Assembly (NCBI RefSeq): GCF_000027125.1
Contig: NC_017626.1
DNA from: Escherichia coli 042
GTDB lineage: Bacteria; Pseudomonadota; Gammaproteobacteria; Enterobacterales; Enterobacteriaceae
Direction: 5' to 3' (one strand)
DNA: 64,000 bases
How positions within the stretch are numbered: position 1 is the first letter of the stretch; every line of letters begins with the position of its first letter. Shown piece by piece: positions 3,695 to 57,871 of the stretch. Under the pieces are notes generated by a model. It had not been told where the DNA came from. It saw only the letters and a program-made list of their open reading frames with translations, and did no database searches. Made by a program: the position numbers and the translations under genes.

Positions 3695-4032
3695 TCAGGA
3701 CATAAGCAACTGAAATTGATGGCTGGCATGACGAGGGATGCAGATGCTGATTTCATTACCCCCGGTGATTACTAAAGGAGAGGCGAAAACGACTTTATTC
3801 CCCTGGTATGTGTATCCACCAGTAGAACCCTTCGTTGCCCGAATGCTGGCAGGAACTGTTGGCAGAACGGCAACATTTTTTTTGTCGTTGACCTCACCAT
3901 GTCGATCACTATGCCTGTATCCCACCTTACTGGCTGACAACCCCACTATGCCGCTGGTCTGTAAATCCCTCATATCTCTCCTCGCGCGCAATTTAAAGAA
4001 CCGTTATTTCTCAAGAATTTTCAGGGACTAAA

Positions 4033-9419: not shown

Positions 9420-9665
9420 GACTATCCCTTATATTTCATTACTGCGATTATTTCAATTTCAGTATACTAATGAAATGATGCCAGACTGTTTCTTAGCGCA
9501 AAAACTGCCAGATTTGGTAGGACCAAAATTTATCCACAAAGTAGTTTTGCATAACAGTTAATTGATAATAAGTAAATGCAACACGAATATATTTTCGCAC
9601 AGCGTATAGCTTATGTTTATAAAAAAATGGCTGATCTTATTTCCAGTAAAAGTTATATTTAACTT

Positions 9666-9771
9666 ACTGAGAGCACAAAGTTTCCCGTGCCAACAGGGAG
9701 TGTTATAACGGTTTATTAGTCTGGAGACGGCAGACTATCCTCTTCCCGGTCCCCTATGCCGGGTTTTTTTT
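9666..9771 (+). ncRNA. gadY: Small regulatory RNA GadY, cis-antisense to the gadX 3' UTR
   Basis: Sequence actgagagcacaaagtttcccgtgccaacagggagtgttataacgg...cccggtcccctatgccgggtttttttt matches the GadY sequence as I recall it and ends in a GC hairpin plus T8 terminator on the plus strand, in the gadX-gadW intergenic region. Confidence 0.75.
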
Positions 9772-9787
9772 ATGTCTGAGTAAAACT

Positions 9788-18154: not shown

Positions 18155-19168
18155 ATGACGCAGGAAAACGAGATCAAACGTCCCACCCAGGATCTGGAGC
18201 ACGAGCCGATTAAGCAGTTGGATAATAGCGAGAAAGGCGGCAAAGTTAGCCAGGCGCTGGAAACCGTCACCACCACTGCCGAAAAAGTCCAACGCCAACC
18301 GGTTATTGCGCACCTGATTCGCGCAACAGAACGCTTTAACGATCGGCTGGGTAACCAGTTTGGTGCGGCTATCACCTATTTCTCATTTTTATCGATGATC
18401 CCGATTTTGATGGTGTCGTTTGCCGCAGGGGGCTTTGTGCTGGCCTCCCATCCGATGTTGCTACAGGATATCTTCGACAAAATTCTGCAAAACATCAGCG
18501 ATCCGACGCTAGCCGCCACGTTGAAAAACACCATCAACACCGCCGTTCAGCAGCGTACTACCGTAGGGCTTGTCGGCCTGGCGGTGGCGCTTTATTCCGG
18601 CATCAACTGGATGGGTAACCTGCGTGAAGCGATTCGCGCCCAGTCGCGCGATGTCTGGGAACGCTCGCCGCAAGATCAGGAGAAGTTCTGGGTAAAATAT
18701 CTGCGTGATTTTATTTCGCTGATTGGTTTGTTGATTGCACTGATTGTGACGCTTTCGATCACCTCGGTTGCCGGTTCGGCGCAGCAAATGATTATTAGCG
18801 CCCTGCACCTGAACAGCATTGAGTGGCTGAAACCGACGTGGCGGTTGATTGGCCTGGCGATTTCCATCTTCGCCAACTATCTGCTTTTCTTCTGGATCTT
18901 CTGGCGCTTGCCGCGCCACCGTCCGCGCAAAAAAGCCCTGATTCGCGGAACATTTCTGGCTGCGATTGGTTTTGAAGTGATTAAAATCGTGATGACCTAC
19001 ACCCTGCCATCGCTGATGAAATCCCCCTCTGGCGCAGCATTTGGTTCCGTGCTGGGACTGATGGCGTTTTTCTACTTCTTCGCCCGTTTGACGCTGTTTT
19101 GCGCGGCGTGGATTGCCACCGCCGAATATAAAGATGACCCGCGAATGCCGGGGAAAACGCAGCGGTAA
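18155..19168 (+). CDS. yhjD: Inner membrane protein YhjD (YihY/virulence-factor BrkB family)
   Basis: 337-aa polytopic membrane ORF MTQENEIKRPTQDLEHEPIKQLDN... Confidence 0.9.
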   Translation: MTQENEIKRPTQDLEHEPIKQLDNSEKGGKVSQALETVTTTAEKVQRQPVIAHLIRATERFNDRLGNQFGAAITYFSFLSMIPILMVSFAAGGFVLASHPMLLQDIFDKILQNISDPTLAATLKNTINTAVQQRTTVGLVGLAVALYSGINWMGNLREAIRAQSRDVWERSPQDQEKFWVKYLRDFISLIGLLIALIVTLSITSVAGSAQQMIISALHLNSIEWLKPTWRLIGLAISIFANYLLFFWIFWRLPRHRPRKKALIRGTFLAAIGFEVIKIVMTYTLPSLMKSPSGAAFGSVLGLMAFFYFFARLTLFCAAWIATAEYKDDPRMPGKTQR

Positions 19169-19559
19169 TTCAATGGTTTATAATGCCTGATAAACGCACG
19201 GTCGATCCCCTCGCCCCTTCGGGGAGAGGATTAGGGTGAGGGGGTACAAGCCAGCCAGAGACCAGGCAATGACATGCACATAACCACCTGAAACTACATT
19301 TCTTCAGGAGCAAACAATTTCATACCAACTCATAACCCCAGCATATAAATCCAGTTGGTAACTTTTATTTAACCTGAAACCAGTTTTATCCACTATTTAT
19401 AAAATTATGTGAAGCATTTCATAGAAGAAAAATCACTGGCCTAAACATTATCCCCTTTTTGCCTGGTTTTTGACCATTTCCGCGATTTGTTACACATTGA
19501 AATATCACTTTTGCTGTGCGTAATATGGCTATTCGTTAGCCAAAAAATAAGAAAAGATT

Positions 19560-20882
19560 ATGCAAGCAACAGCCACAACACTCGACCACGAGCAAGAATA
19601 CACGCCGATCAACTCGCGTAATAAAGTCCTTGTCGCCTCTCTCATTGGCACGGCCATTGAGTTTTTCGACTTTTACATTTACGCCACTGCGGCCGTTATT
19701 GTGTTTCCGCATATCTTCTTCCCGCAGGGCGATCCTACGGCAGCAACGCTCCAGTCGCTCGCCACCTTCGCCATCGCCTTCGTCGCGCGCCCCATTGGCT
19801 CTGCCGTTTTTGGTCATTTTGGCGATCGCGTTGGGCGTAAAGCGACGCTGGTCGCCTCGTTGCTAACGATGGGGATTTCGACCGTGGTGATTGGTCTGCT
19901 GCCGGGCTATGCCACGATTGGTATTTTCGCCCCGCTGCTGCTGGCGCTGGCTCGATTTGGTCAGGGTCTGGGCTTAGGCGGTGAATGGGGCGGCGCGGCG
20001 CTGCTGGCGACTGAAAACGCCCCACCGCGCAAACGTGCACTGTATGGCTCCTTCCCGCAGCTGGGCGCACCGATTGGCTTCTTCTTTGCCAACGGCACTT
20101 TCTTGCTGCTTTCCTGGCTACTGACCGACGAGCAGTTTATGAGCTGGGGCTGGCGTGTGCCATTTATCTTCTCAGCGGTGCTGGTCATTATCGGCCTGTA
20201 TGTTCGCGTGTCGCTGCATGAGTCGCCGGTGTTTGAGAAAGTCGCTAAAGCGAAAAAGCAGGTGAAGATCCCGCTGGGTACGCTGCTGACCAAACACGTA
20301 CGCGTCACGGTGCTCGGTACCTTCATCATGCTGGCAACCTATACGCTGTTTTACATCATGACGGTCTACTCTATGACCTTTAGTACCGCCGCCGCGCCAG
20401 TTGGGCTTGGCCTGCCGCGTAACGAAGTGTTGTGGATGCTGATGATGGCAGTTATTGGTTTTGGCGTGATGGTGCCAGTCGCCGGATTACTGGCTGATGC
20501 CTTTGGTCGCCGTAAAAGCATGGTAATCATCACCACGCTGATCATCCTGTTCGCGCTGTTCGCCTTTAACCCGCTGCTCGGTTCTGGCAACCCGATTCTG
20601 GTTTTTGCCTTCCTGCTGCTGGGGTTAAGTCTGATGGGACTGACCTTCGGGCCGATGGGCGCGCTGTTACCAGAGCTGTTCCCGACAGAAGTGCGTTACA
20701 CCGGAGCATCGTTCTCTTACAACGTAGCGTCGATTCTCGGGGCTTCCGTTGCGCCGTATATCGCAGCCTGGTTGCAGACTAACTACGGGTTAGGTGCGGT
20801 GGGGTTATATCTGGCGGCGATGGCTGGCTTGACCTTAATCGCCCTACTGCTGACCCATGAGACGCGACATCAATCGTTGTAA
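19560..20882 (+). CDS. yhjE: MFS transporter YhjE
   Basis: 440-aa 12-TM ORF with MFS signature (GHFGDRVGRK). Confidence 0.92.
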   Translation: MQATATTLDHEQEYTPINSRNKVLVASLIGTAIEFFDFYIYATAAVIVFPHIFFPQGDPTAATLQSLATFAIAFVARPIGSAVFGHFGDRVGRKATLVASLLTMGISTVVIGLLPGYATIGIFAPLLLALARFGQGLGLGGEWGGAALLATENAPPRKRALYGSFPQLGAPIGFFFANGTFLLLSWLLTDEQFMSWGWRVPFIFSAVLVIIGLYVRVSLHESPVFEKVAKAKKQVKIPLGTLLTKHVRVTVLGTFIMLATYTLFYIMTVYSMTFSTAAAPVGLGLPRNEVLWMLMMAVIGFGVMVPVAGLLADAFGRRKSMVIITTLIILFALFAFNPLLGSGNPILVFAFLLLGLSLMGLTFGPMGALLPELFPTEVRYTGASFSYNVASILGASVAPYIAAWLQTNYGLGAVGLYLAAMAGLTLIALLLTHETRHQSL

Positions 20883-20894
20883 TAAGAGTGAAAA

Positions 20895-21057
20895 GCCTGA
20901 TGCGCTACGCTTATCAGGCCTGAATTTCCATACAATATATTGAATTCGCAAAGATTTGTAGGACGGATAAGGCGTTCACGCCGCATCCGGCATGAACAAA
21001 GCACACTTTGCCAACACTCTAAATCTGTTTAATTGCCGGATGTCAGACATCCGGCAA
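20895..21057. repeat. REP/BIME palindromic element cluster
   Basis: Three REP-type palindromes: gcctgatgcgctacgcttatcaggcc, gtaggacggataaggcgttcacgccgcatccggca, ttgccggatgtcagacatccggcaa, between convergent yhjE and yhjG. Confidence 0.75.
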
Positions 21058-42317: not shown

Positions 42318-43066
42318 GATTTACTCCCGACTGGCGTTTTCAGCCCGGAATAGTTCAACAGGCACCAGTTAGCCAGCGTCAGTATCTCTTCAGCGGCCAG
42401 CGCATCACTGCGATATTCACCGACTGGTTGCTTAGCCGCCAGGCATTCAGCCATCGCTTCATCACGATGAATGAGCATTGGCAGTAATCGGCGCTGGCTT
42501 TGCAACCAAAGCTGGTAAATATCGTCCTGAACTTGACTGCCGATACGGAAGTCATTAATCAAAATATGCGCGCCATCCGGCAGCGCCTGCTGATGCAGCC
42601 GGATATGGCAGTTGGCATCCACATTGACGATTGCCAGCGAGTGATCGCACAAACTCAGCAGCTGGTGGGTTATCTGCGAGGAATCACGCGGTAAGTCGAT
42701 TAAAATCCACTGGTAACGCCCGCTGGCTTTTAGTTGCTGTAAGCCGGAGCAAATATCGCTCAGCCGGGTTTGCCAGTGCTGTGGATTTTCTTGTTCTTCA
42801 ATGGATAACTGACCAAAAGGCAGCAAATCGAGCTGCGAGGTATAGCGCAACCCGGCGTCACGCCAGTCCTGGTCATCCAGCATAGCTCTGGCCCAGCCCT
42901 GACGGTGGGTAAAATCAACGTTAAATGACAGGCGCAACAAGTTGTCCGGGCAGGCATCGACCACCAGGACATTTTCTCCCAACATTTGTAATGACCAGGC
43001 TAATGCGGCGGTGATGGTTGTTGTCCCCACGCCTCCCCGCACCCCCTGCAATCCCAGTACGGCCAT
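42314..43066 (-). CDS. bcsQ: Cellulose biosynthesis ATPase BcsQ (MinD/ParA family), intact
   Basis: 250-aa uninterrupted ORF MAVLGLQGVRGGVGTTTITAAL... with a deviant Walker A. Codon 6 is TTG (Leu), not the TAG I recall for K-12. Confidence 0.9.
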   Translation of the reverse strand: MAVLGLQGVRGGVGTTTITAALAWSLQMLGENVLVVDACPDNLLRLSFNVDFTHRQGWARAMLDDQDWRDAGLRYTSQLDLLPFGQLSIEEQENPQHWQTRLSDICSGLQQLKASGRYQWILIDLPRDSSQITHQLLSLCDHSLAIVNVDANCHIRLHQQALPDGAHILINDFRIGSQVQDDIYQLWLQSQRRLLPMLIHRDEAMAECLAAKQPVGEYRSDALAAEEILTLANWCLLNYSGLKTPVGSKS

Positions 43067-46973: not shown

Positions 46974-47059
46974 GAACGAAAAAGGCCGCAGAGTTTCACC
47001 CCTGCGGCCTGATCCGGGCGCAAATTGCCATTACGGCAGCCTGACGCCCGCATGACACG

Positions 47060-47167
47060 TTACTTCCGCTTATTCAGCGAGTTCACGATCAGACTGGCAA
47101 GAATGCCAGCAATGACCGGAGCCGCTAAATCATGCCAGAAGGCCATGCCCAGTTCTGCGAGCGTCAT
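47060..47167 (-). CDS. ldr: Ldr-family type I toxin peptide (35 aa), copy 1
   Basis: MTLAELGMAFWHDLAAPVIAGILASLIVNSLNKRK; ATG at 47165-47167. The ORF-track 80-aa ORF is an upstream in-frame extension. Confidence 0.85.
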   Translation of the reverse strand: MTLAELGMAFWHDLAAPVIAGILASLIVNSLNKRK

Positions 47168-47215
47168 ATAGCCGCCTCTGTTGTAATGACAACGTTTCGC
47201 GGCTATTCTTGAGTT

Positions 47216-47283
47216 GTTTGGGTTCAAGATTAGCCCCCGTGATGTTGTCAGGTGCATACCTGCAACGTGCGGGGGTTTTCTCT
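47216..47283 (+). ncRNA. rdl: Rdl-family antisense RNA, copy 1
   Basis: Plus-strand element ending in the hairpin gcccccg...cgggggttttctct within the ldr leader; coordinates inferred from my recollection of RdlD. Confidence 0.55.
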
Positions 47284-47542
47284 CTCCAGCAACCAATGCC
47301 ACCAGGGATTAAGCCCCCGCAACATTGCGCCTCACCGGAACCCTTCCGGCTTGCCGCTGATTCTACGGCCATTTTTGTTCGTCGAAATCCATCACTTCTT
47401 CACTCTGTGCTGCGCATTCCGCAGAATATTATCCGCTTGCAGCCGTTGCATTTTTCTTACGAAAAAGGCCGCAGAGTTTCACCTCTGCGGCCTGGTCCGG
47501 GCGCAAATTGCCATTACGGCAGCCTGACGCCCGTCTGACACG

Positions 47543-47650
47543 TTACTTCCGCTTATTCAGCCAGTTCACGATCATGCTGGCAAGAATGCCAGCAATGACC
47601 GGAGCCGCTAAATCATGCCAGAAGGCCATGCCCAGCTCTGCGAGCGTCAT
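47543..47650 (-). CDS. ldr: Ldr-family type I toxin peptide (35 aa), copy 2
   Basis: Same frame and length as copy 1; C-terminus ...ASMIVNWLNKRK; not reported separately in the ORF track. Confidence 0.8.
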   Translation of the reverse strand: MTLAELGMAFWHDLAAPVIAGILASMIVNWLNKRK

Positions 47651-47698
47651 ATAGCCGCCAGTGTTGTAATGACAACGTTTCGCGGCTATTCTTGAGTT

Positions 47699-47766
47699 GT
47701 GTAGGTTCAAGAATGGCCCCCGTCATATTGTCAGGTGAATACCTGCAACGTGCGGGGGTTTTCTCT
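47699..47766 (+). ncRNA. rdl: Rdl-family antisense RNA, copy 2
   Basis: Repeat-unit copy of the rdl element with terminator hairpin. Confidence 0.5.
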
Positions 47767-48025
47767 CTCCAGCAACCAATGCCACCAGGGATTAAGCCCC
47801 CGCAACATTGCGCCTCACCGGAACCCTTCCGGCTTGCCGCTGATTCTACGACTGTTTTTCTGTTCCGAAATCCATCACTTCTTCACTCTGTGCTGCGCAT
47901 TCCGCAGAATATTATCCGCTTGCAGCCGTTGCATTTTTCTTACGAAAAAGGCCGCAGAGTTTTATCCCTGCGGCCTGATCCGGGCGCAAATTGCCATTAC
48001 GGCAGCCTGACGCCCGTCTGACACG

Positions 48026-48133
48026 TTACTTCTGCTTGTTCAGCCAGTTCACGATCATGCTGGCAAGAATGCCAGCAATGACCGGAGCCGCTAAATCGTG
48101 CCAGAAGGCCATGCCCAGCTCTGCGAGCGTCAT
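48026..48133 (-). CDS. ldr: Ldr-family type I toxin peptide (35 aa), copy 3
   Basis: MTLAELGMAFWHDLAAPVIAGILASMIVNWLNKQK. Confidence 0.85.
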   Translation of the reverse strand: MTLAELGMAFWHDLAAPVIAGILASMIVNWLNKQK

Positions 48134-48181
48134 ATAGCCGCCTCTGTTGTAATGACAACGTTTCGCGGCTATTCTTGAGTT

Positions 48182-48249
48182 GTGTAGGTTCAAGAATGGC
48201 CCCCGTGATGTTGTCAGGTGCATACCTGCAACGTGCGGGGGTTTTCTCT
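48182..48249 (+). ncRNA. rdl: Rdl-family antisense RNA, copy 3
   Basis: Repeat-unit copy of the rdl element with terminator hairpin. Confidence 0.5.
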
Positions 48250-48508
48250 CTCCAGCAACCAATGCCACCAGGGATTAAGCCCCCGCAACATTGCGCCTCA
48301 CCGGAACCCTTCCGGCTTGCCGCTGATTCTACGACTGTTTTTCTGTTCCGAAATCCATCACTTCTTCACTCTGTGCTGCGCATTCCGCAGAATATTATCC
48401 GCTTGCAGCCGTTGCATTTTTCTTACGAAAAAGGCCGCAGAGTTTCACCTCTGCGGCCTGGTCCGGGCGCAAATTGCCATTACGGCAGCCTGACGCCCGT
48501 CTGACACG

Positions 48509-48616
48509 TTACTTCCGCTTGTTCAGCCAGTTCACGATCATGCTGGCAAGAATGCCAGCAATGACCGGAGCCGCTAAATCATGCCAGAAGGCCATGCCCA
48601 GTTCTGCGAGCGTCAT
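48509..48616 (-). CDS. ldr: Ldr-family type I toxin peptide (35 aa), copy 4
   Basis: MTLAELGMAFWHDLAAPVIAGILASMIVNWLNKRK. Confidence 0.85.
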   Translation of the reverse strand: MTLAELGMAFWHDLAAPVIAGILASMIVNWLNKRK

Positions 48617-48664
48617 ATAGCCGCCTGAGTTGTAATGACAACGTTTCGCGGCTATTCTTGAATG

Positions 48665-48732
48665 GTCTAGATGCAAGAATGGCCCCCGTGGTGTTGTCAG
48701 GTGCATACCTGCAACGTGCGGGGGTTTTCTCT
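48665..48732 (+). ncRNA. rdl: Rdl-family antisense RNA, copy 4 (RdlD-like)
   Basis: gtctagatgcaagaatggcccccgtggtgttgtcaggtgcatacctgcaacgtgcgggggttttctct, the copy closest to the RdlD sequence as I recall it. Confidence 0.6.
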
Positions 48733-48991
48733 CTCCAGCAACCAATGCCACCAGGGATTAAGCCCCCGCAACATTGCGCCTCACCGGAACCCTTCCGGCT
48801 TGCCGCTGATTCTACGGCCATTTTTGTTCGTCGAAATCCATCACTTCTTCACTCTGTGCTGCGCATTCCGCAGAATATTATCCGCTTGCAGCCGTTGCAT
48901 TTTTCTTACGAAAAAGGCCGCAGAGTTTTATCCCTGCGGCCTGATCCGGGCGCAAATTGCCATTACGGCAGCCTGACGCCCGTCTGACACG

Positions 48992-49099
48992 TTACTTCTG
49001 CTTGTTCAGCCAGTTCACGATCATGCTGGCAAGAATGCCAGCAATGACCGGAGCCGCTAAATCGTGCCAGAAGGCCATGCCCAGCTCTGCGAGCGTCAT
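48992..49099 (-). CDS. ldr: Ldr-family type I toxin peptide (35 aa), copy 5
   Basis: MTLAELGMAFWHDLAAPVIAGILASMIVNWLNKQK. Confidence 0.85.
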   Translation of the reverse strand: MTLAELGMAFWHDLAAPVIAGILASMIVNWLNKQK

Positions 49100-49147
49100 A
49101 TAGCCGCCTCTGTTGTAATGACAACGTTTCGCGGCTATTCTTGAGTT

Positions 49148-49215
49148 GTGTAGGTTCAAGAATGGCCCCCGTGATGTTGTCAGGTGCATACCTGCAACGT
49201 GCGGGGGTTTTCTCT
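49148..49215 (+). ncRNA. rdl: Rdl-family antisense RNA, copy 5
   Basis: Repeat-unit copy of the rdl element with terminator hairpin. Confidence 0.5.
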
Positions 49216-49574
49216 CTCCAGCAACCAATGCCACCAGGGATAAAGCCCCCGCAACATTGCGCCTCACCGGAACCTTTCCGGCTTGCCGCTGATTCTACGA
49301 TTGCTTTTTACCGTCAGCACCCGGCAATCTTCCTCATTGCGCGATGCCTTCCAGCTTAATTTCTTTATTTGCAATAGTTGCAGTTCATATCCGGGCTGAC
49401 TCCAGACTGGTAGTGAAATGCGCAATTTTGTAGAATTGCGCCTCCTCGCGACCTCCCCAGTGAATCTGTTGCCTCATTTTTTACATACTGCGTATTCGAC
49501 TTCTCCACCTGTTGCGCAAGAGAAACTGGGTTTATTCATTTTTGCGAGGCCGACTTCTTTCTGGACAGGACTTT

Positions 49575-54900: not shown

Positions 54901-55072
<172 letters not shown>

Positions 55073-56750: not shown

Positions 56751-57295
56751 CCCTTTGCAGTGGGTTGTCGCTGCCTGACCTTTTTTGTTTTTTGCCCGGT
56801 CGGGTCAACGTTATGAGGTGGGGATGCCGTACTAATTAACATCAGTGTAACAGTGCGGATCCTCCATAAAATGCCCCTCGTGACCTACAATCTGTCAACA
56901 GAATGTGAAAACGTCAATACAGCCAACCGGGATTTACACCAACGGTGAGAATCCACAAACAAAGATTAAAAAAACTTCAAACAGCTATTTGCAGCAGAGA
57001 AATTTGTGCTACTCCAACATGACCAGAACAATCAGCTTAATATTTAGCAACAATTGGTGATTAAGTTTTATGCATTTTGTGAAAAAAATCTGAGGAAAAG
57101 GTGGATATCTGAGCGATTAATACCATGAACGCTAAAACGCACAGCGGAAAATGCCAGCGCCAGCCATAAGTAACGCAAAAAAAAATTTAAGCAAATATAA
57201 AAAAAGACAATGGTTTCTGTCACAAATCCGTTAATGGATAGTGAGATATGGGCGCAAATTTGGCAGGAAAATGTGTGGTGTGTAGGTCGAATAAG

Positions 57296-57794
57296 GCGGT
57301 CGCGCCGCATCCGACAATGGGCCGGCACATTTGCCTGATGCGACGCTGGCGCGTCTTATCAGGCCTACGTCGAATCGAACCTCCCTGCCCCCGGAAGTTC
57401 TCATCCTCTTCAGGCCGCAGAAAGCAAAAAACCAGCCCGTAGGCTGGTTTTTCTAAATTGGTCGGTGATAGAGGATTACTCGCCACTTCGTGGCTCGCCC
57501 TGCGGGCCGTTGCTGGCGCAACGTTCTCTCGCTTCGCTCGAGTCGAATCTCCCTGCCCCCGGAGGTTCTCATCCTCATAGGCTACAAATGCAAAAAAGCC
57601 TGCTCGCTGAGCAGGCTTTTCGAATTTGGTCGGTGCCAGAGGATTACTCGCCACTTCGTGGCTCGCCCTGCGGGCCGTTGCTGGCGCAACGTTCTCTCGC
57701 TTCGCTCGAGTCGAACCTCCCTGCCCCCGGAGGTTCTCATCCTCATGGGCTACAAATGCAAAAAAGCCTGCTCGCTGAGCAGGCTTTTCGAATT
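57296..57794. repeat. Three tandem imperfect direct repeats (about 150-185 bp), each ending with a terminator hairpin plus a roughly 20-nt copy of the proK 3' end
   Basis: Units at about 57296-57479, 57480-57648 and 57649-57794. Each contains tcgaa(t/c)ctccctgcccccgga(a/g)gttctcatcctc, a hairpin (aaaaaaccagcccgtaggctggttttt or aaaaaagcctgctcgctgagcaggctttt) and aatttggtcggtg(at/cc)agaggatt, which matches the proK 3' terminus. Confidence 0.7.
57762..57790 (-). terminator. Rho-independent terminator of proK
   Basis: On the minus strand aaaagcctgctcagcgagcaggcttttttg, 5 nt after the tRNA 3' end. Confidence 0.65.

Positions 57795-57871
<77 letters not shown>

Follow-up and report, generated by a model that had tools for sequence, protein, structure and literature searches.

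The GC-rich hairpin between yhjD and yhjE in Escherichia coli 042 is a slightly mutated type-A unit of BoxC, an intergenic repeat dispersed through E. coli. The explanation that best accounts for it, which is highly probable when taken jointly for identity and for carriage, is that the element is a degenerate BoxC type-A unit that is passively carried and that has no locus-specific regulatory role. We infer both the lack of a function at this locus and the direction of the replacement by which, in one E. coli haplotype, the unit came to stand where most E. coli genomes have REPs.

The window (that is, the whole 64-kb stretch of DNA that was analysed) contains the element in a spacer between two genes whose names are taken from the RefSeq annotation of E. 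coli genomes matching the window at 99.9-100%. The genes, the segment that contains the unit and the parts of the unit itself are as follows, with the basis for each in brackets:

18155-19168, + strand: yhjD coding sequence, a 337-aa ORF (RefSeq annotation under identical matches)
19169-19275, no strand assigned: haplotype-specific 107-nt segment containing the BoxC unit (alignments A1 and A3)
19185-19206, + strand: conserved left flank of the BoxC unit, GCCTGATAAACGCACGGTCGAT (paralog alignments A2 and A5)
19207-19217, + strand: block 1, the C-rich arm CCCCTCGCCCC (nhmmer match at 19208-19243; inverted repeat)
19218-19220, + strand: loop 1, TTC (Table 1 of PMC4666352; alignment A2)
19221-19230, + strand: block 2, the first G-rich arm GGGGAGAGGA (alignment A2)
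19231-19233, + strand: loop 2, TTA (section 18 and Table 1 of PMC4666352; PMC5100583)
19234-19244, + strand: block 3, the second G-rich arm GGGTGAGGGGG (inverted repeat, profile match and PMC4666352)
19246-19255, + strand: right-hand spacer remnant ACAAGCCAGC (alignments A2 and A5)
19560-20882, + strand: yhjE coding sequence, a 440-aa ORF (RefSeq annotation under identical matches)

The yhjD stop codon, TAA, occupies 19166-19168, and the three-block core, which reads CCCCTCGCCCC-TTC-GGGGAGAGGA-TTA-GGGTGAGGGGG (19207-19244, + strand), is intergenic, lying 39 nt past that stop codon and about 315 nt ahead of the yhjE start. The original prediction of a GC-rich, imperfect hairpin at 19184-19250 quoted a 42-mer, cgatcccctcgccccttcggggagaggattagggtgaggggg, which is found on the + strand at 19203-19244, and the pairing claimed for it is present: CCTCGCCCC pairs with GGGGAGAGG (block 1 with block 2) with one G.A mismatch. 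A second pairing is possible between the C block and block 3 (CCCCTCGCCC with GGGTGAGGGG, 10 nt, 90% complementary), the single mismatch being a G.T or G.U wobble; hence the hairpin stands, while what had been described as a G-rich tail following it is no tail but the third block of the motif. By energy alone the element is less striking: an RNA fold of the 67-nt + strand gives -28 kcal/mol (z=-2.2), z is -0.5 for the minus strand, and a DNA fold of the 40-nt core gives z of about -1. Such folding energies are unremarkable and are not persuasive alone; that the element is more than a chance palindrome follows from its family membership and not from thermodynamics.

The family in question has been described several times under different names. 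Holder et al. (2015; PMC4666352) equate the motif with the BoxC of Bergler et al. (1992), which the Maher laboratory later found anew and called the PIT element and which is here renamed TMECO; the PIT element work of Hoyne and Maher (2000-2002) thus concerns the same element as BoxC. In MG1655 there are 23 TMECO copies, always intergenic and either of type A (TTA loop) or of type B (PMC4666352); a 2008 survey gives 22-32 BoxC copies in E. coli (PMC2267715); and in Kaplan et al. (2016) this core appears as the HPG1 G-quadruplex/hairpin motif, GGGAGAGGGTTAGGGTGAGGG (PMC5100583). It is the TTA of loop 2 that marks type-A units, type-B units having CCG-like loops (PMC4666352, PMC5100583), while loop 1 varies across the family (TTT, TCT, CTC and others).

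An nhmmer profile built from the 23 K-12 TMECO sequences in Table 1 of PMC4666352 yields one match in the 64-kb window, at 19208-19243, where the published 36-nt motif begins at 19208; the match is full length, with 36.4 bits and E=3.3e-10. Over this 36-nt core, the sequence agrees with the commonest type-A copies at 34 positions and departs from them at two, of which one falls within the variable loop, so that the yhjD-yhjE copy is of the form 'type A with one mismatched triplet'. The likeness extends beyond the 36-mer into flanks that align with those of eight paralogous loci (left GCACGGTCGAT, right ACAAGCCAGC; alignments A2 and A5), as belongs to a BoxC unit of roughly 56 nt, and the motif is dispersed, chromosomal and intergenic, as BoxC is. 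At the left flank, 19185-19206, the family consensus is approximately AAAGCGCACGGTCnGT; the right-hand spacer reads ACAGGCCAGC in the rest of the family and, in full composite BoxC elements, runs into an inverted type-B unit (as seen in a motif scan of the paralogous loci). No inverted type-B unit is present at the yhjD-yhjE copy, which is thus a lone A unit, unlike the BoxC units at five K-12 sites that have such a partner.

The other departure from the family is an A at 19230, where all eight other copies in alignment A2, and all 23 published K-12 copies, have an otherwise invariant G. This one base breaks both the strict TMECO search pattern, CCCTCNCCC-N3-6-GGGNGAGGG-N3-GGGNGAGGG, which fails here by that base, and the canonical quadruplex pattern of four G tracts of at least three joined by short loops, which has no match at the element (the tracts being GGGG, GG, GGG and GGGGG). 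A relaxed TMECO pattern does match. The copy is filed as a degenerate member of BoxC by descent, because the strict pattern is an operational one, because PMC4666352 itself admits a 'mutated TMECO', and because the allele of strain ETEC1738 keeps the G. Relative to HPG1, the copy has the same G-rich core (published as GGGAGAGGGTTAGGGTGAGGG) and a C-rich 5' flank, but its second G tract is only GG and a canonical three-tetrad quadruplex is not predicted for it. The overall order of C block, loop, G block, TTA and G block is that of BoxC, PIT and TMECO, with which the element further shares its intergenic position, multiple copies and common flanks, as well as presence or absence between strains and local decay; it is unlike them in the A for G at 19230, by which it misses the strict published pattern.

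What is published on the structure and activity of the family bears on this copy as follows. In vitro, the G-containing strand on its own adopts an intrastrand triplex or a G-quadruplex (PMC4666352, PMC5100583), block 3 being the third strand of the triplex as published (PMC4666352), whereas no triplex was detected in duplex DNA or in vivo (PMC4666352). The circular dichroism and NMR data on the triplex come from consensus oligonucleotides (PMC4666352), relative to which the yhjD-yhjE copy would, from its base sequence, lose only the terminal triplet of the predicted purine-motif triplex. Earlier work, as cited in PMC4666352, found for PIT/BoxC elements neither promoter nor terminator activity, nor any effect on RNA polymerase. 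TMECO loci are hypervariable between strains and prone to rearrangement (PMC4666352). The supplement of Holder et al. lists type-A copies with a TTC loop at other loci and mentions neither yhjD nor yhjE (PMC4666352); the site is in fact outside the set of 23 MG1655 copies, K-12 having REPs there.

The dispersal of the family, which the original prediction had suspected without being able to name it, is evident from complete genomes. Within the 64-kb window the 38-mer is unique (0 further copies expected), but 5425 of the 5426 complete E. coli genomes contain the 61-nt unit, at 89,965 places in total (median 18 per genome, range 1-33), 89,913 of these places being chromosomal and 52 on plasmids. 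In strain 118UI, whose sequence here matches the window at 100% identity, it is found at 15-16 places, so that the copy count proposed as a check shows the motif not to be unique in the genome; and the family proves to be BoxC, which had been named among the catalogues to compare. The count differs widely from genome to genome: ATCC 25922, NU14 and strains like them have 2-5 places, K-12 derivatives have 19-20, and the highest count elsewhere is 33. Eight paralogous loci (sstT-alx, recA-recX, flgG-flgH, ybdD-cstA, fepB-entC, ypfG-tkt, zntA-tusA and trmJ-iscR) were aligned (A2, A5): the core is invariant among them and the flanks are conserved, the left one being approximately GCGCACGGTCnGT and the right one, which at some loci runs into an inverted second unit, approximately AACAGGCCAGCA. 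The closest paralog is that at trmJ-iscR, with 91.5% identity over 59 nt (window 19185-19243). The resemblance to a dispersed intergenic repeat family is thereby borne out by the paralog alignment, by PMC4666352 and by the nhmmer profile.

The three-block motif also occurs beyond E. coli. A pattern scan of metagenomes with the exact 23-mer GGGGAGAGGGTTAGGGTGAGGGG finds at least 120 contigs, ranging in GC content from 0.32 to 0.73 and having unrelated flanks. Among the matches listed, a complementary CCCTC(T/G)CCCC block lies within 12 nt upstream of the 23-mer in 97 of 123 occurrences, and an inverted partner lies downstream in 20; among these same matches, the three-block motif is cross-phylum, and the flanks are specific to the enterobacterial family.

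At the yhjD-yhjE site itself the unit is present in only a minority of E. coli. When the element is searched together with its surroundings as a 151-nt query, only 600 of the 5426 complete genomes (about 11%) match, whereas a 1.1-kb query matches 5422, mostly as two pieces that lack the middle. The 106 nt that follow the yhjD stop codon in K-12, O157 and other strains are instead a BIME consisting of two inverted canonical REPs, with variants having fewer REPs (alignment A1); the K-12 record NC_000913.3 has no repeat feature annotated in the yhjD-yhjE spacer. The two kinds of segment are non-homologous: in global alignments against shuffles, the 107-nt window segment and the K-12 BIME segment give z=-0.03, as against z=8.5 for the window segment and the trmJ-iscR BoxC segment. 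A reading of the segment's ends (ATGCCTGAT..AAACGC and GCCAGC...GGC.AT) as REP remnants was considered and rejected, the same bases being found in the trmJ-iscR BoxC copy and the alignment to the K-12 BIME being no better than shuffles.

Outside this haplotype, 80 orthologous yhjD loci taken from other species and clades were searched, and no BoxC motif lies within 1.5 kb at any of them. REPs hold the orthologous site in E. albertii, E. whittamii and cryptic Escherichia clades; Salmonella subspecies have REP-like palindromes after yhjD; and Citrobacter, Klebsiella and Enterobacter have a plain hairpin there. In the representatives read from the latter three genera (loci L019, L057 and L065, of Citrobacter, Enterobacter and Klebsiella), each genus has its own simple hairpin directly past the yhjD stop codon. 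A 3' stem-loop of some kind is thus a constant of the position after yhjD in the genera examined. Because other E. coli and other Escherichia species have a REP or BIME at the site, the REP state is probably the older one in Escherichia, with BoxC having been gained in one E. coli haplotype as the derived state; a single gain at yhjD-yhjE is assumed here. The original prediction had named uniqueness in the genome together with lack of conservation at orthologous loci as what would count against it; the motif is multi-copy, which disposes of the first, while the second is true outside one E. coli haplotype. To be multi-copy and yet not conserved at orthologous loci is typical of the BoxC family.

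Two further differences lie close to the repeat site. The last sense codon of yhjD (window 19163-19165), and thus the C-terminal residue of YhjD beside the repeat, varies: the codon is CGG (Arg) in the window and in E. albertii and CCT (Pro) in K-12 and O157, and two other Escherichia clades have AAT or CAT. At 19294/19295 the window is without a 20-nt stretch that is found in K-12, O157 and E. albertii (CGTCCCCAGAGCCTCTTCAG in K-12); this indel is independent of the BoxC/REP swap, because a cryptic-clade genome with REPs (L014) is also without the stretch.

The allele of the unit differs among carriers. The four that were fetched (ETEC1738, AR_0077, Ecol_881 and HS-02) all encode the same YhjD protein variant. 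Of about 604 carriers, 469 (~78%) match the window exactly over 61 nt and therefore have the A at 19230 that breaks the quadruplex and strict TMECO patterns. The ETEC1738 allele, which keeps the consensus G at that position, has a different G-to-A change in block 2; the AR_0077 allele has a second G-to-A change in block 2; and the HS-02 allele is missing 7 nt of block 3 and has many changes nearby (alignment A3). The block 1:block 3 pairing is intact in three of the four variant alleles that were read. This drift matches the 'TMECO mutated' category of Holder et al., who also report raised local variability (PMC4666352). The HS-02 allele (L093:151-298) is 85% identical to the window within surrounding DNA that is nearly identical, its small indels and substitutions clustering in the left flank and in block 3; this variant may reflect local hypermutation or an assembly error.

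Scans for conventional signals return nothing at the element. As had been noted originally, no T-run follows the stem in the yhjD direction (the following bases are GGGGGTACAAGCC), and a terminator scan of 19169-19560 finds no site; a promoter scan places no promoter-like site at the element, the sole one upstream of yhjE lying at 19497-19526, about 250 nt past it. An Rfam search of the local region at E<=10 gives as its best overlap Antizyme_FSE, with 18.6 bits against a gathering score of 40 and E=0.42, which is read as chance, and in a whole-window Rfam scan at gathering thresholds no family reaches threshold at the element. Elsewhere, the whole-window scans find a tandem array at 46976-49309 (+ strand; period 483 nt, 4.8 copies, 95% identity) with five Rfam matches to the rdlD antitoxin sRNA, at 47216, 47699, 48182, 48665 and 49148, which identify it as an ldr/rdl type I toxin-antitoxin array in multiple copies; at this locus K-12 presumably has a single ldrD/rdlD. 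The same scans find routine features at 9663-9776, 3812-3883, 55009-55051, 57285-57365, 57459-57762, 57798-57871, 20958-20991 and 43025-43055, among which are GadY, ES205, ES036/CssrF and naRNA4/CssrE (each of these last two overlapping a REP-like core), a pair of RtT-like repeats beside a tRNA, a REP past yhjE and, on the minus strand, one canonical G4 motif.

From these observations a history may be proposed. The unit consists of a C-rich block followed by two near-identical G-rich blocks, on either of which the C block, when single-stranded, can fold back. It would have arrived inside the 107-nt segment, just past the yhjD stop codon, in one E. coli haplotype, and has drifted since, the commonest allele through the change of G to A at 19230 and others through further changes in block 2 or a deletion in block 3. 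At most, it serves the yhjD transcript as a generic 3' stem-loop, as REPs or plain hairpins do in other strains and genera; it lacks the look of an intrinsic terminator, and it is not a promoter element of yhjE. Against a locus-specific regulatory role stand the broken quadruplex and strict TMECO patterns, the drift of the sequence, the unrelated REPs that hold the site in 89% of genomes, and the distance of 250 nt to the promoter-like site of yhjE.

Among other explanations the most serious, although we consider it unlikely, is that the element is a functional 3' stem-loop of the yhjD mRNA, in which block 1 paired with block 3 (10 bp, with one G.U) blocks 3'-to-5' exonucleases as the equivalent of a REP; this is compatible with BoxC identity. 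REPs stabilise upstream mRNA, and the proposed structure occupies the very position that is held by REPs in other Escherichia and by plain hairpins in Citrobacter, Klebsiella and Enterobacter; that a stem-loop follows yhjD in every genus examined hints at a useful 3' structure there. A hairpin of -28 kcal/mol is predicted in the RNA, beginning 39 nt past the stop codon, and in three variant alleles the substitutions lie in block 2, leaving the block 1:block 3 pairing untouched; because three of four variants keep that pairing, the hairpin could still be under some constraint. On the other hand, the fold z-scores are modest both as RNA (-2.2) and as DNA (about -1), part of block 3 is gone from the HS-02 allele, and PIT elements were, according to PMC4666352, without terminator activity and without effect on RNA polymerase.

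It is very improbable that the element acts as a G-quadruplex/hairpin/duplex switch regulating the neighbouring genes, as has been proposed for HPG1. The family core GGGAGAGGGTTAGGGTGAGGG is the HPG1 sequence, for which circular dichroism supports both quadruplex and hairpin in vitro (PMC5100583); here, however, the A at 19230, shared by ~78% of carriers, reduces the second tract to GG so that the canonical four-tract pattern fails, the nearest promoter-like site of yhjE is ~250 nt away, unrelated REPs hold the site in 89% of genomes, and the BoxC family is not known to have a regulatory effect in vivo (PMC4666352).

That the element is a Rho-independent terminator of yhjD, as a GC-rich stem-loop shortly past a stop codon might suggest, is extremely improbable: the U/T run required of an intrinsic terminator is absent, the stem being followed by UACAAGCC, the scan of 19169-19560 is empty, and PIT/BoxC elements were without terminator activity in the earlier work that PMC4666352 cites. 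Finally, the chance that it is a diverged REP or BIME, or a fortuitous palindrome, is negligible in spite of the REPs found at the same site in other strains, for no REP core (GCCGGATGCGGCG or GCCTGATGCGACGC, with a TTATCCGGCCTAC tail) occurs within two substitutions anywhere in 19169-19300, the segment resembles the K-12 BIME at chance level (z=-0.03), and its likeness to BoxC paralogs is strong (z=8.5; profile E=3.3e-10); this reading is accordingly refuted by the REP-core scan, the profile match and the alignments against shuffles, and the original judgement that the element is not a canonical REP is upheld. What BoxC here has in common with REPs and BIMEs is that all are short, structured, dispersed intergenic repeats just past a stop codon, and that REPs hold this very site in most E. 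coli; in sequence, the two are unrelated.

A BoxC segment that stands in the place of a BIME is not peculiar to yhjD-yhjE. At trmJ-iscR, a 123-nt BoxC segment is present in 1433 of 5426 genomes, in place of the three BIME units of K-12 and the single one of strain 536; in the comparison of NCTC9088 (L098) with K-12 (L102) and strain 536 (L103), the BoxC and BIME segments have identical boundaries and no homology. At both loci, therefore, a BoxC segment of ~107-123 nt lies exactly where other strains have one to three BIMEs. At ybdD-cstA (L008:352-447 and L009:349-444) and zntA-tusA (L012:240-447), BoxC lies 26-38 nt downstream of canonical REP tails. A different arrangement is seen at recA-recX, where BoxC and a degenerate inverted partner form an insertion of ~174 nt in a REP-free spacer in 1635 of 5426 genomes, K-12 not among them (O104:H4 strain C227-11, L006:366-540, compared with K-12, L097); the junctions of the occupied and empty sites resemble one another in an ambiguous, diverged way, for which a target duplication might account. 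In all, BoxC contacts REPs at four of nine sampled loci, a sample that is small and not unbiased, and this contact is suggestive. The metagenome scan is uninformative on such an association, because few of the contigs listed are enterobacterial and most are from unrelated phyla. That BoxC units and BIMEs are interchangeable occupants of the same sites after stop codons is, on this evidence, a doubtful proposition that we regard as improbable.

As a discovery, the yhjD-yhjE copy carries little weight: the BoxC family has been known since 1992 and was studied in 2000-2002, 2015 and 2016, no in-vivo function has been established for it, and this copy is an ordinary, slightly decayed member. For annotation, a previously unlabelled stretch can now be named a degenerate BoxC unit and its spacer, between yhjD and yhjE, marked as a repeat-swap hotspot, with BoxC in ~11% of genomes and a REP or BIME in the rest. 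One lead is worth following, namely the replacement of BIMEs by BoxC at two loci. REPs have a mobilising transposase family, RAYT, and we know of no mobilisation mechanism for BoxC. If BoxC units and BIMEs did prove interchangeable, then BoxC might spread either by landing or recombining at REP arrays or by way of the same mobilising machinery, and this would provide a first handle on the mechanism of BoxC mobility.
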